This document shows, piece by piece, positions 34,401-57,738 of a DNA stretch of 64,000 nucleotides. The stretch is from an uncultured Chloroflexia bacterium (GTDB lineage Bacteria; Chloroflexota; Limnocylindria; Limnocylindrales; CSP1-4), in contig CAVTHS010000008.1 in the NCBI GenBank assembly GCA_963734535.1, forward strand, positions 352,001 through 416,000, given 5' to 3'. Position numbers and translations under genes: made by a program. Every line of letters starts with the position of its first letter. Position 1 is the first letter of the stretch. A model generated the notes under the pieces. It was not told the DNA's origin. It searched no databases and saw only the letters and a program-made list of their open reading frames with translations.

Positions 34401-34557
34401 TGATCGCGCGGCAGCCGCGAGCGCTCGTGCGAGCTACGCCCGCATGCTTGCCGATCTCGGGCTCGCCGAATCTGCCGGCGAGGCCCGCGCGACCGCAGGC
34501 ACCCGCCCGGCCGAGTCCGTGCCGCTCACTTCGCCGCGCGGAACTCCACCTCGGTGA
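31480..34557 (+). CDS. large ATP-binding transcriptional regulator: MalT-like NTPase + TPR-like region + winged HTH + BTAD
   Basis: [41 protein letters not shown]-terminal IRCFGAF...LW.D...[31 protein letters not shown]. Confidence 0.88.
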
Positions 34558-36650
34558 TCGCGACGTTCGTGCCGCCGCTCGAGGCATAGACGGACTTCAC
34601 GGTCAACCGGAAGGTCGTTGCTCCCTTGGCGGACACGTCGAACGACTGCGGGTCCTTGACGTCCTTGAGCTCGAGATCCTTGGACGCGACGGCCGCGCCC
34701 GACGCGTCGAGGAACTCGACGCTGATGTCGTGCGGGCGCGGGCTGCCCTGGAAATCGGGGACGGCGCCCGAGGTGACGAGGATCTTCGCGATGTCCGTCG
34801 CCGGGCTGAAGCCGGCGCTGATGGCCGGGGCCGCCCCGCCCGTCACCGGAGCTGCCCAGTACGTGTTGCTGAACCCATCGAACGCCGCCTGGGCCGGGTG
34901 CCCCTTGACGGCCGGCCCGGTCGCCTGGCCGGCGCTGTGGACCGGGACCAGGTTCGGCGCAACCGTCTGCCGAATGGACGAGATGAACGAGTTGACGCCG
35001 TCGCGCCAGTCGGGGACCACGGCGTACCCGACGACCGCGCCGACGAGCGCCGCCACGACCACGACCTGGATCACGAGGGTAAGCAGCCGTCCGATCGAGA
35101 GCCCGCGCCGGCCCGCGCGACCGTCGGTGCGCATGCTCTTCGGCCGCTCGCCGGCGGCAGCCGTCGTTCGACGCCGGCGGAAGATCCGCCGGTACCAGGG
35201 CACCTTCGGCGCCACCGCGACGACGGCCTCGGCCAGGGATTGGCCGCAGCGCCGGCAGAAGCGCCGGGTCGGATCGTTGCCGATCCGGCAGTTCCCGCAG
35301 ATGAGATCGCCGGGGTTTGCCGGCGGCGTCTCGGCCTGCGCCTGGCGGGCCGCCTGTCGGGCATGTTCCGGGCCGGGCCGAACCGCGACGGGCTGCCGGG
35401 AGGCAGGCTGCTCCGGCATCGGCACCGGCACGACGGCCGCGGGCTGGACTGCCGGACTCACGACCGGTGCTGGCGGCGCGACCTGGCGAACCGGGCGGGC
35501 TGCGGGCGGCTGGGCGGGTGGGAGGGCGACGGGCCGAGCGGCTGGCGGCTGAGCTGTCGGAAGGCTCGCCGTCGGCTCGGCGAGGGGCGGGGTCGCGACG
35601 ATCGGCGGTGGGGTCGGACGGGCTGCCTCGAAGAGCGGACGTGGTCGCGGGATCGTGCCTCCGGGGCCCCCCAGGGCAGGCCGAATGCGCGGCGTCGCGG
35701 GCACCACTGGAGCGGGTGCCAGGGTCGGCGCGGCAGAGGGCCCCGGTTCGGGGATGGGTCCGGGTTCGGCAGCTGGCGCCGTGGTCGGTGTCGGCCCAGG
35801 CTCGAGCACCGGCTCGGCCACGACCTGGGGCCCGGGCTCGGGTGTCGAGGCCATTGCCTCGACTGGCTCGGCCACGGTGGACGGCGCGGGCACGGCCGCG
35901 GGCGACGGGGCGGGTGCCATTGTTGCGATCGGTTCTGGCTCCGGTGCGGAGTGGCGGTTCGGGCAACGGCGCTGGCTCGGGTTCGGGCAACGGCGCTGGC
36001 TCGGGTTCGGGCAACGGCGCCGGCTCGGGTTCGGGCAACGGCGCTGGCTCGGGTTCGGGCAACGGCGCCGGCTCGGGTTCGGGCAACGGCGCTGGCTCGG
36101 GTTCGGGCAACGGCGCCGGCTCGGGTTCGGGCAACGGCGCTGGCTCGGGTTCGGGCAACGGCGCCGGCTCGGGTTCGGGCAACGGCGCCGGCTCGGGTTC
36201 GGGCAACGGCGCCGGCTCGGGTTCGGGCAACGGCGCCGGCTCGGGTTCGGGCTCCGCCATCCGATAGACACGGGTACCGGAGACGATCACCGGTGCGGTC
36301 GGGGCTCCCGAGGAACCAGCCTGCGATGTTGCCGCGCCGGCAGCGTCCGCCGCCTCACGAGATCCTGGCGTCTCTCCTGCGCCGGGCTGGGCCGAAGAAG
36401 CGCCGGCCGGCTCGGCTCCGGTCCCAGCCGGTGCTGACCCGGCGCTGCCCAGGCCGACGGCATCGCGCACGCGGCCAACGAAGGTCAGGTGCTCGGGCTC
36501 GACGGGCTGCGGCGCTTCGGGTTCCGGCACGACCGGCTCGGGCGCCGCTTCGGCCACCTTCGACCCGGTCCATTCGAGGAAGCTGCCGCACGATCCGCAG
36601 AAGCTGTCCGCGGCGGTGTTCTGGAACCCGCACTTGGTGCAGACGATCAC
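34526..36650 (-). CDS. CisA-like zinc-ribbon / Pro-rich / TM / discoidin (NADase-type glycan-binding) protein, frameshifted near 35953
   Basis: GTG at 36650 with [37 protein letters not shown]. Then (PEPEPAPL)n and a frame switch. Then [21 protein letters not shown] helix and [15 protein letters not shown]...VAITEVEF. Confidence 0.8.
35956..36252 (-). repeat. 24-bp tandem repeat x12 encoding PEPEPAPL
   Basis: ggttcgggcaacggcgc(c/t)ggctcg; 12 copies counted. Confidence 0.95.
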
Positions 36651-36783
36651 GTGGCGCTCCCTCGACAGCCAGCCTGCCCGCGTGCTCGCGGTGCGCCCCG
36701 ACGGTTGGTCCGGCCGCGCGCGACCGGACCGGCGGAACGTGCGCGCATCGTAGCAAGCGGGCCGCGTCGAGCGAGCGCGCGGC

Positions 36784-56288: not shown

Positions 56289-56373
56289 GCGAAGACCGCG
56301 TGGCCGCGCCATCCCCCACCGGGTGGGCTACGCTGCATCCGACGAGCGAGCGATGGAGGCGAACGCCAGCAGG

Positions 56374-57738
56374 ATGATCTGCGCGAAATGCGGCACGCAG
56401 AATGCGGCCGGGGACGCCTTCTGCGGCAGCTGCGGCGCGTTCCTCGAGTTCGCGGCCGAGGAGGCCGGCTCGCCCGGGACCGCGGCAGCCGAACCGCAGC
56501 CCGGGGCGTCCACGTCCGCGCAGGCCGCGCTCCCGACGGCGGCCGCGCCGACGCCGATGGGCGCTGCGCCGGCCGTGGACGCTCCCCCACCCGCCCCGCA
56601 GGCCCCGGCACCGGTCGCAGCCTCCGTGCCCGCGGTGGCGCCGTCGCTGGCGCCGTCGGGTCCCACCTGCCCGGCCTGCGGCCGTGCCAACCCAGCGGGT
56701 CGGACGTTCTGCATCTCGTGCGGCGAGCGCCTGCCCGCCGCGGGACGGGTGACCACGTCAGGCGCGCGCCCGGGGACGGCATCGCACCCGGCGGGACCGA
56801 TCGCCGCGGCGCCCATCGCAGCGGCGACGCGCCCTACCGCGCCGGCCCCCGTTCCGCCCGCCCCGCTCGCGTCGGCCCCGGCCCCAACGGCCGCTCCTGT
56901 CGCGCCGCCGCAGCCGGCCGCAGCGGCGTGGGAGTTCCCGACGGCGCCCGGCCGGCCGGTCGTTCCGCCGGGCGCCCGGCCCGGTGCCGGACCCGAGACG
57001 CCCGCGCCGGCCACGACCCGGCGCCGCGGCGGGAGCCCGCTCCCGTTGATCGTCGGCGCCGGCGTCCTGTTCCTCGTCCTCGCCGGCGGCGGTGCGGCCG
57101 TCCTGCTCGGCGGGAAGCCAGGCCCGACGGCGTCGGCGCCGGTCGCGTCGGCGCCGGTCGCATCGGGCGGCTCGGCGGCGGCGAGCGCTGCGGTCCCCGG
57201 TGCCTCTGCAGCTGCAGCGTCCGCGGGTGGAGCCTCGTTCGCGCCGTCCGCCGCCCCCGCCACGCTCCCGCCCGGCCCCTCGATCGGGCTGACCCTGACA
57301 GCCGCAACTGCCTCGTCGTCGCTCGCGGGCCATGCCGCATCGGCGGCCACCGACAACGACCCGACCACGGCCTGGAAGACGGGCGGATCGGATCCGTCCG
57401 ACCAGTGGATCGAGATCACGTTCGCGCCCGCCGCCGTGACGCGCGTCCAGCTGTGGAACGGCTGGCAGCGCACGCAGGACTACTTCGCCGGCAACCGGCG
57501 GCCGCGCAACGTCACGCTCCGCTTCGATTCCGAGACACCGATCCCGCTCAAGCTCGTGGACGTGTACGGATCCCAGCGCGTGGACATCCCCCCGGAGCTC
57601 GGGATCGTCGGCGTGACCCGTCTCCGGATCGCGATCCTCGACTGGTACCCGGCGAAGAAGACCCCGGCGGCCGGGAGCCCCACCACGCAGGCCGCGATCA
57701 GCGAGATCCGCCTCTATGGCATCCCGATGACACCATGA
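56374..57738 (+). CDS. second CisA-like zinc-ribbon / TM / discoidin (NADase-type glycan-binding) protein
   Basis: MICAKCGTQNAAGDAFCGSCGAFLEF, CPACGRANPAGRTFCISCG, TM helix, ATDNDPTTAW...QWIEITF...LWNGWQ...NRRPR...AISEI. Confidence 0.85.
   Translation: MICAKCGTQNAAGDAFCGSCGAFLEFAAEEAGSPGTAAAEPQPGASTSAQAALPTAAAPTPMGAAPAVDAPPPAPQAPAPVAASVPAVAPSLAPSGPTCPACGRANPAGRTFCISCGERLPAAGRVTTSGARPGTASHPAGPIAAAPIAAATRPTAPAPVPPAPLASAPAPTAAPVAPPQPAAAAWEFPTAPGRPVVPPGARPGAGPETPAPATTRRRGGSPLPLIVGAGVLFLVLAGGGAAVLLGGKPGPTASAPVASAPVASGGSAAASAAVPGASAAAASAGGASFAPSAAPATLPPGPSIGLTLTAATASSSLAGHAASAATDNDPTTAWKTGGSDPSDQWIEITFAPAAVTRVQLWNGWQRTQDYFAGNRRPRNVTLRFDSETPIPLKLVDVYGSQRVDIPPELGIVGVTRLRIAILDWYPAKKTPAAGSPTTQAAISEIRLYGIPMTP

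Follow-up and report, generated by a model that had tools for sequence, protein, structure and literature searches.

Contractile injection systems (CIS) that act in their own producer through a dedicated membrane protein, CisA, have so far been studied in Streptomyces, where they are tied to mycelial development. According to excerpts of the published work, the particles of S. coelicolor assemble in the cytoplasm, are loaded with cargo of the Sco4256 type, are recruited to the membrane by CisA and fire under stress, with death of the producing cell (PMC10066040, PMC12237407), and homologues of CisA are on record for Streptomyces as well as for other actinomycetes (PMC10020575, PMC12237407). 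Class IId CIS have already been published for Chloroflexi (PMC10020575, PMC12998442), together with Sco4256 homologues in these loci (PMC10020575). As far as the excerpts of PMC12998442 go, the Chloroflexota CIS imaged so far are without a close CisA, and Roseiflexus is without a close cisA homologue (Gaisin 2026). Here, we describe a CIS locus in a stretch of 64,000 nucleotides (nt), referred to as the window, from contig CAVTHS010000008.1 of an assembly catalogued as an uncultured Chloroflexia bacterium (GCA_963734535.1). The locus lies on a chromosomal island, and the system is very probably a class IId, CisA-type CIS of the Streptomyces type.

Gene content of the locus and its host

Because the window has a G+C content of 73%, genes were called from third-position GC and frame plots, and the calls were checked against Pfam, NCBIfam, and PHROGs. 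A preliminary description of this DNA had listed a gene order running from the sheath to a zinc-ribbon transmembrane (TM) protein, with a divergent group of cap, ATPase, and DUF4157 genes, a LuxR gene and a membrane operon, and all of these were recovered in that order between 34526 and 57738 (Table 1). Comparison of six proteins with all PDB chains revealed that the best solved relative was a chain of the S. coelicolor CIS (8bky, 9gtp, 9gtr, 9gts) for every one of them, namely the sheath, Cis7, Cis8, Cis11, Cis12, and Cis16, which bears out the Streptomyces-type character proposed at the outset. These PDB entries are tied to the Streptomyces CIS by the data-availability sections of PMC12237407 and PMC10066040. 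The next-best distinct system in the sheath comparison was 9ezm (E 6e-115), and the sheaths of PVC, Afp, Anabaena, and AlgoCIS followed at E 1e-46 to 1e-52. A sheath match was also found in 33 of 401 Actinomycetota genomes drawn (a tally that includes the unpublished G193 and G133). The Streptomyces-like reference, G351, is a single contig of 8.0 Mb whose sheath scored 1038 bits against 8bky_A, and it carries all core genes in the same order, with identities of 33-66%.

The sheath gene starts at 47613 (MPNYLSPG), so that it is shorter than the longest frame, and it is the sole sheath gene of the assembly; apart from generic STAND and LuxR paralogues, no other genomic copies of island genes were found. 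The tail-assembly-chaperone-like protein was 61-89% identical across the loci examined and matched no Pfam or NCBIfam family. In the 782 amino acid (aa) protein at the tape-measure position, conservation was confined to an N-terminal region (approximately residues 46-152) and the last 30-50 residues, and since no match was found in Pfam, NCBIfam, PHROGs, or PDB, the name tape measure is a positional guess. No tail-fibre (including Afp13-like), ClpV, or toxin family was detected among the open reading frames (ORFs) of the island with Pfam, NCBIfam, and PHROGs, and a search for PAAR genes in the genome (90% complete) was negative.

Sheath, tube, and baseplate families are common to the tails of myophages, and the locus might thus be a prophage tail module or a tailocin (R-type bacteriocin). 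This possibility appears extremely improbable, as the sheaths of R-pyocin and T4 were far more distant (E 1e-13 to 1e-14), the scan of ORFs across the 64 kb did not reveal any capsid, portal, terminase, integrase, holin, or endolysin family, and the hallmarks of CIS are present, i.e., two tube paralogues, DUF4157, the Pvc16 cap, and the AAA+ ATPase. The window had neither a tRNA nor a match in Rfam, and there is likewise no tRNA at the edges of the island. The prophage reading was rejected for want of head or lysis genes. A type VI secretion system (T6SS) was also considered and rejected: the sheath is of the Phage_sheath_1 type, and no T6SS family was found among the island ORFs, except for the VgrG-type domains that are common to all CIS.

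The host assembly is a metagenome-assembled genome (MAG) of an uncultured soil bacterium, 3.2 Mb in size, with a G+C content of 73%, 90% completeness and 7% contamination. Since close sheath homologues (71-88% identity) bear labels such as Chloroflexota bacterium and Candidatus Limnocylindrales bacterium, the host is, judged by these labels, a Limnocylindria-type Chloroflexota bacterium and not a streptomycete, in agreement with the non-streptomycete host of the preliminary description. That description had named a streptomycete host and linked capsid or terminase genes as observations that would speak against it; neither was encountered, the latter within the 64 kb.

CisA, the candidate effector and the proposed mode of action

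The CisA orthologue follows directly after the Cis12 gene, which is the position that defines CisA in published work (e.g., PMC12237407). The protein comprises an N-terminal zinc ribbon, twelve EPEPAPLP repeats with a Pro-rich linker, a second zinc ribbon, one TM helix and an extracytoplasmic discoidin/CBM32-like domain. A structure model of the C-terminal region (pLDDT 83.5) consisted of the TM helix and a beta-sandwich, for which the best Foldseek matches were CBM32 and F5/8 type C lectin modules (probability 1.0, TM-score 0.6-0.79 on the target), and this outer domain probably reads cell-envelope glycan. The fold and the layout fit the account that excerpts of Vladimirov et al. (PMC10020575) give of CisA/Sco4242, with a Cys-rich, possibly Zn-binding domain before the TM helix and a carbohydrate-related C-terminal domain. 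The protein at the CisA position of G351 (491 aa) shares the Pfam signature and the plan of the window protein: it begins with a zinc ribbon, continues through a disordered stretch rich in Pro and Ala to a second, Cys-rich ribbon and one TM helix, and ends in a domain that matches NADase_transloc/F5_8 type C. Identity between the two proteins was 28% over 262 aa (74.7 bits) and 37.5% in the first ribbon; the conserved features of CisA are the two zinc ribbons, a juxtamembrane WYRR motif and the CBM32-like ectodomain. A complex prediction for Cis11 (649 aa, 19-row alignment) and CisA residues 1-75 (31-row alignment), run without controls, scored 0.29 against a mark of 0.32, a value that weighs in neither direction. 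At the site of the CisA repeats, relatives (e.g., loci L107, L056, and L068) have PE-rich runs of other lengths or units, and the length of the cytoplasmic linker looks variable between species.

By analogy with S. coelicolor, the particles would assemble free in the cytoplasm and would be loaded with the Sco4256-like membrane protein as cargo. Under stress, bitopic CisA, with its zinc ribbons and long disordered linker in the cytoplasm and its CBM32/discoidin-like domain outside, would recruit the baseplate to the cytoplasmic membrane from within and license firing, which would kill the producing cell. Taken as a whole, a Streptomyces-type CIS with cytoplasmic, producer-killing action in a Limnocylindria-like Chloroflexota bacterium seems moderately probable. 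Several points weigh against this proposal: the mode of action is proposed from homology to one experimental system of another phylum; the identity of CisA to the Streptomyces-like protein is only 28%, and low outside the zinc ribbons and the C-terminal domain; the CisA and PD40 genes are frameshifted in the assembly; and the genome is an incomplete MAG with some contamination, a concern that is weakened by the synteny conserved on large contigs of four relatives. In addition, the reference system has itself been read in two ways, as Vladimirov et al. (excerpts of PMC10020575) considered that Sco4242/CisA may be the fibre of a particle acting outside the cell.

Applied to the present locus, the extracellular alternative would mean that particles released by lysis attack other cells and that the CisA-like protein serves as a fibre or receptor-binding protein by means of its glycan-binding domain. 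The CisA gene indeed lies where extracellular CIS (eCIS) and phages encode their fibres, the C-terminal domain has a carbohydrate-binding fold, and this role was proposed for Sco4242, a protein found in purified particles (excerpts of Vladimirov et al., PMC10020575). We nevertheless consider it unlikely, given that a TM helix is predicted between the cytoplasm-type zinc ribbons and the lectin-like domain, that the same topology has been shown experimentally for S. coelicolor CisA (PMC12237407), that the island yielded no gene recognisable as an Afp13-like fibre, and that every imaged class IId relative in the excerpts is intracellular (PMC10066040, PMC12998442).

The candidate cargo of the producer-directed system, a protein of the Sco4256-4258 family, showed 36-37% identity over 255-261 aa to two tandem genes of G351 (E 4e-45 and 4e-46). 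Both of these sit between sheath and ATPase, and one ends in Ricin_B, an ending described for Sco4257/4258 in excerpts of the literature. The model of the window protein (pLDDT 86) contains two Ig-like domains, a TM helix (residues 221-257), a disordered linker and a C-terminal beta-sandwich, for which Foldseek returned only generic Ig-like/ASH/PapD folds that suggest no activity.

The accessory set, which had been supposed to be the lineage's own, proved to be so in part. CisA, the Sco4256-4258-family effector, and the LuxR regulator are common to G351, so that, on sequence grounds, most of the set is shared with Streptomyces. Three genes, by contrast, are lineage-specific and were all missing from the 40 kb that surround the locus in G351: those of the STAND/SARP regulator, the PD40 protein and the second CisA. 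The most likely contribution of these genes is additional control or another contact with the envelope, although these roles are guessed. The STAND/SARP gene adjoins CisA in all four of the genus relatives examined, and the PD40 protein is composed of a signal/anchor helix, PD40 repeats, a Pro/Thr linker and choice-of-anchor D/ASH domains. In the divergent region between sheath and cap, the conserved block of about 75 nt holds CCGATCGG-type palindromes and may be an operator. The 9-nt motif that contains the palindrome was unspecific, with 12 matches in the window vs. 5.75 expected and as many in 2 of 100 shuffles, and a scan of 47400-53000 for sigma-70-type consensus promoters and terminators found nothing.

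Boundaries, distribution and frameshifts of the island

The CIS unit is a 26.4 kb chromosomal island (approximately 31341-57743), which members of the genus carry or lack as one block at a constant site. In three CIS-less members, namely G847 (95% complete), G011, and G021, the left flank and the GH13 gene are adjacent and the whole block is missing; DNA similarity to the window ends at about 31340 and restarts at about 57744, with some 250 nt between, and these points define the unit. The complete order, from the STAND gene through the CisA paralogue and on to GH13, was kept in four relatives of the genus (G007, G017, G005, and G001). A binning artefact was rejected, since the same arrangement occurs on contigs of 0.06-2.7 Mb in four relatives. 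The extent first given for the unit, 34526-57738, was correct at its right end and too short on the left, where the island reaches about 31341 and includes the STAND/SARP regulator. In G021, a 62-nt match (81%) to the 3' end of the CisA paralogue (window 57679-57740) lies just before GH13 (locus L157, G021:C15, approximately 26700-26760), and this remnant hints that the CIS-less state of G021 arose by deletion.

The survey of the genus comprised 42 species-level genomes (G000 included), which are kin, and the results are therefore given as counts without a statistical test. A close sheath was found in 27 genomes and was not found in 15. CisA was present in 27/27 genomes with a close sheath and in 2/15 without (29/42 overall), the effector homologue in 27/27 and 3/15, the PD40/anchor-D gene in 25/27 and 1/15, and the CisA paralogue in 26/27 and 0/15, respectively. 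Among the sheath-less exceptions with CisA or the effector, four of the five matches were in genomes of 54-76% completeness, and one of the exceptional genomes, G846, is 83% complete. A 28th genome, G011, has a sheath in the absence of the island; it is a different one (G011:C4:159148-161046, partial matches of 36-49% identity), which belongs either to another CIS or to a prophage tail.

Further analysis of the reading frames modified two items of the preliminary description. The zinc-ribbon gene is present, but its real start is at 36650, directly after Tail_P2_I, and CisA lies in two frames, with the zinc ribbon and the twelve EPEPAPLP repeats at 35955-36650 and the remainder at 34526-35953; the frame switches at about 35953-35955, at the edge of the 24-nt tandem repeat. 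The membrane operon is present as well (52801-57738), but two of its ORFs (54092-55414 and 55335-56288) are one PD40 gene, split by one extra T at 55304 in comparison with G023 (95% identical DNA). The PD40 open frame spans 730-1150 aa in relatives vs. 430 in the window. Both genes are each in one frame in G007, G017, G005, and G001, and G023 has an intact PD40 gene as well. In a close relative, G852, the frame likewise changes within the Pro-rich linker of CisA, which makes assembly indels a plausible explanation for the frameshifts. The frameshifts of CisA and PD40 may thus mean that the copy in this genome is defective in firing, or they may have arisen as errors of the assembly.

It could also be argued that the whole island of this genome is a decaying, non-functional copy in which CisA and PD40 are pseudogenes, because both genes are intact in relatives and the island has been lost repeatedly in the genus, as seen in the 15 genomes without it and in the remnant of G021. 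Such decay is doubtful in view of the remaining island genes, which are open in 20 of 20 cases, and of the nature of the breaks, one of which falls at a tandem-repeat edge, while the frame changes in the G852 linker resemble assembly indel errors.

The genes on both sides of the island belong to metabolism and transport (PFOR, CoA transferase, aminotransferase, aldehyde dehydrogenase, a fabI-type reductase, CbiMQ, ABC transporters, GH13, and an M20 peptidase), and fabI, PFOR, and GH13 are thus present as initially claimed. CbiM and CbiQ domains occur in a single ORF of 758 aa (19150-21426), which encodes a fused membrane protein of cobalt transport; CIS-less relatives match it in two pieces with only 35-36% identity. 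The GH13 gene (57735-61244) starts within the last bases of the CisA paralogue, overlapping its stop. The coding signal switches frame near 60900 (ORF 60736-61485, no Pfam match), which may reflect another frameshift, or a small gene of its own, in the C-terminal part of the GH13 region.

Table 1. Features of the window in order of position, with the evidence on which each assignment is based (positions in nt of the window; best PDB chains with E-values).
Feature	Position	Strand	Evidence or remark
Pyruvate:ferredoxin oxidoreductase (PFOR), N-terminus	1-387		POR_N, 272 bits; at left edge of window, open frame of 1277 aa runs beyond it
fabI-type reductase	17761-18591		Left flank
STAND-type NTPase fused to SARP-like DNA-binding end	31480-34557	+	AAA_22, Trans_reg_C, BTAD (Pfam); leftmost island gene
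CisA orthologue	34526-36650	-	NF047619 (NCBIfam model of NADase-type glycan-binding domains), 58.2 bits (cut-off 38); position; architecture
24-nt tandem repeat	35956-36252		12.4 copies, 97% matches; encodes EPEPAPLP repeats of CisA linker
Cis12 baseplate wedge (Tail_P2_I)	36784-37323	-	Pfam; 9gtp_E, E 7e-40
Cis11 baseplate wedge (Baseplate_J), 649 aa	37328-39277	-	Pfam; 9gtp_1K, E 2e-234, full length
Cis9 gp25-like sheath initiator	39281-39682	-	Pfam; 56% identity to G351 gene
Cis8 VgrG-like spike	39694-41448	-	Pfam; 9gtr_q, E 1e-86
Cis7 tube initiator, CIS_tube with LysM-like C-terminus	41452-42177	-	9gtp_P (LysM domain-containing protein), E 2e-41
Cis1b, second tube paralogue	42177-42602	-	Phage_T4_gp19 (Pfam), E 1e-30
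Ala/Pro/Gly-rich low-complexity protein, 782 aa, tape-measure position	42637-44985	-	Position
DUF6760 small protein	44993-45166	-	Pfam, E 9e-15
Tail-assembly-chaperone-like protein, C-terminal CxxC	45148-45585	-	PHROG 508, E 3e-7
Cis1a tube	45587-46048	-	Phage_T4_gp19 (Pfam)
Cis2 sheath, 504 aa	46099-47613	-	Phage_sheath_1 and 1C (Pfam); 8bky_A/9gtp, E 5e-205
Divergent sheath/cap intergenic region	47614-47906		Conserved block of about 75 nt at about 47700-47775 (alignment of 6 genus sequences)
Cis16 cap (Pvc16_N)	47907-48659	+	Pfam, E 5e-40; 9gts_0A, E 4e-54
Cis15 AAA+ ATPase (WHD and AAA)	48683-50770	+	Pfam; PHROG 10401
DUF4157/eCIS_core protein, HELTH motif	50827-51750	+	Pfam, E 1e-28
LuxR-family (GerE) regulator	51775-52455	-	Pfam; also beside CIS in G351 (46% identity)
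Sco4256-4258-family protein, putative cargo/effector	52801-54066	+	Similarity to two tandem G351 genes; first gene of membrane operon 52801-57738
PD40/choice-of-anchor-D envelope protein	54092-56288	+	Pfam, NCBIfam; single gene in relatives
Second, more divergent CisA paralogue	56353-57738	+	NF047619, 76.1 bits; two zinc ribbons, TM helix, NADase-type discoidin domain; last island gene

Phylogeny of the sheath and comparison with known systems

A scan for the sheath with one genome per species yielded at least 598 matching stretches, 579 of which were confirmed. Among the best 80 of these, assigned by record title, 47 were from Chloroflexota (67-99% identity), 12 from Dormibacterota (68-72%), 15 from Acidimicrobiia, 2 from 'Actinomycetes', and 2 from unclassified Actinomycetota (64-69%), and one contig each was labelled Verrucomicrobiia and Eisenbacteria. 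The sheaths on the last two contigs (L045 and L052) are of the Limnocylindria type (70% identity) and nested inside the Chloroflexota clade, which is due either to mis-binning or to recent transfer. When 401 Chloroflexota genomes were drawn, 81 had a sheath match at E <= 1e-30 (the unpublished G671 included), with only 5 of 23 genomes in the window's own family; a sister family of the same order, with genomes of 1.0-1.4 Mb, had no sheath match in 16 genomes.

Sheath trees were built with FastTree (n = 123) and with IQ-TREE (LG+C20, quick search, n = 51) and rooted on an outgroup of 39% identity. The window fell in a clade of Limnocylindria and Dormibacterota (16 rows, SH-aLRT 90), and the actinobacterial clade, with G351 and many Acidimicrobiia, comprised 17 rows (SH-aLRT 98). 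Both lie in one group of 35 rows (SH-aLRT 88), with which FastTree agrees, and the sheath of the window thus groups with the clade that holds Streptomyces, in line with the kinship first proposed. The deep forks of the tree are open, and it bears on grouping, not on donor or recipient. Since the tree carries no dbeCIS reference labels, the class name IId was taken from the papers. In FastTree, the sheath of locus L102 (G362, a 7.0 Mb actinomycete) stands beside Dormibacterota rows, a placement unresolved in IQ-TREE; in this locus, the genes for cap, effector, and LuxR are immediate neighbours of the sheath gene and two Cis1b-like genes are present, and it may represent a transfer back into Actinomycetota.

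Eight other Chloroflexota families formed a separate sheath clade of 8 rows (SH-aLRT 94), which we infer to be the published Chloroflexota/Deinococcota clade. The CisA query matched in none of 5 genomes of that clade, and the N-domain of the effector was found in 4 of the 5, each time about 10-32 kb from the sheath gene. This pattern agrees with excerpts of PMC12998442 for Roseiflexus and of PMC10020575 for Sco4256. A zinc-ribbon ORF directly after Cis12 was detected in 35 of 47 related loci that reach this point, including loci of Dormibacterota (L053 and L062) and Acidimicrobiia (L072, L081, L084, and L085).

These data bear on the supposition that the locus is an undescribed variant, which held in part. 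Neither CisA nor the effector family nor the occurrence of class IId CIS in Chloroflexi is new, with class IId CIS and Sco4256 homologues in Chloroflexi published in the parts of PMC10020575 and PMC12998442 cited above. As far as we have seen, what is new is the CisA-bearing, Streptomyces-like subtype outside Actinomycetota, with its three extra genes, together with how often it occurs in uncultured soil lineages and the way in which it behaves as an island. No paper was found on contractile injection in Limnocylindria, Dormibacterota, or Acidimicrobiia, while the supplementary homologue tables of PMC10020575 and PMC12237407 may list such genomes. The particle, CisA, the Sco4256-type cargo and LuxR thus occur together in Limnocylindria, and judged by the zinc-ribbon ORFs after Cis12, the same set appears in MAGs of Dormibacterota and Acidimicrobiia, which calls into question whether a filamentous life style goes with class IId systems, as has been proposed. 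An island that is gained or lost, with a CisA of 28% identity, also provides comparative material for the conserved features of CisA. A more speculative and rather improbable extension is that CisA-dependent, self-directed killing is no speciality of actinomycetes or mycelia but constitutes a mobile 26 kb cell-death island across phyla, in soil lineages that are abundant, uncultured, and possibly unicellular (Limnocylindria, Dormibacterota, and Acidimicrobiia), in which, in Limnocylindria, the STAND sensor and the second envelope module of CisA paralogue and PD40 protein would gate firing on envelope damage or phage attack in a manner resembling abortive infection.

Among the known systems, Afp of Serratia, PVC of Photorhabdus, and AlgoCIS share with the window homologues of sheath, tube, Afp7, Afp8, Afp9, Afp11, Afp12, Afp15, and Afp16, but they are much more distant, and their equipment includes tail fibres, soluble toxins, and a tape measure that can be recognised as such, whereas the window encodes a membrane-anchored CisA, no fibre, and a TM protein as its sole cargo candidate. 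The sheath of the thylakoid-anchored tCIS of Anabaena (PDB 7b5h) is likewise distant (E 6e-49). That system is intracellular, attached to a membrane and linked to death of the producer cell, and its anchoring is achieved by extensions of baseplate proteins and not by a CisA-type protein. The former properties are partly backed by excerpts of PMC10020575. The cytoplasmic CIS of Chloroflexota and Deinococcota (Roseiflexus, Thermogemmatispora, and Deinococcus; excerpts of PMC12998442) are from the same broad phylum, related to class IId, intracellular and equipped with Sco4256-like genes; the window differs from the clade of other Chloroflexota in that its sheath groups with the actinobacterial clade and that CisA is present in 29/42 genomes of the genus vs. 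0/5.

The greatest likeness is to the CIS of S. coelicolor (CISSc, SCO4242-4260, class IId; Casu 2023, Vladimirov 2023, Casu 2025), with which the window shares the core set and its order, two tube paralogues, the lack of fibre and PAAR genes, a CisA-type membrane protein directly after cis11/cis12, a Sco4256-type TM effector, a divergent cap-ATPase operon and a neighbouring LuxR gene. It differs from CISSc in its Chloroflexota host with a 3.2 Mb genome, in core identities of 33-66% with only 28% for CisA, and in its single effector gene, which has an unassigned beta-sandwich end instead of ricin/ChW ends and is located beyond LuxR rather than between sheath and ATPase. The locus extends the range of a known system and adds no new mechanism to it.

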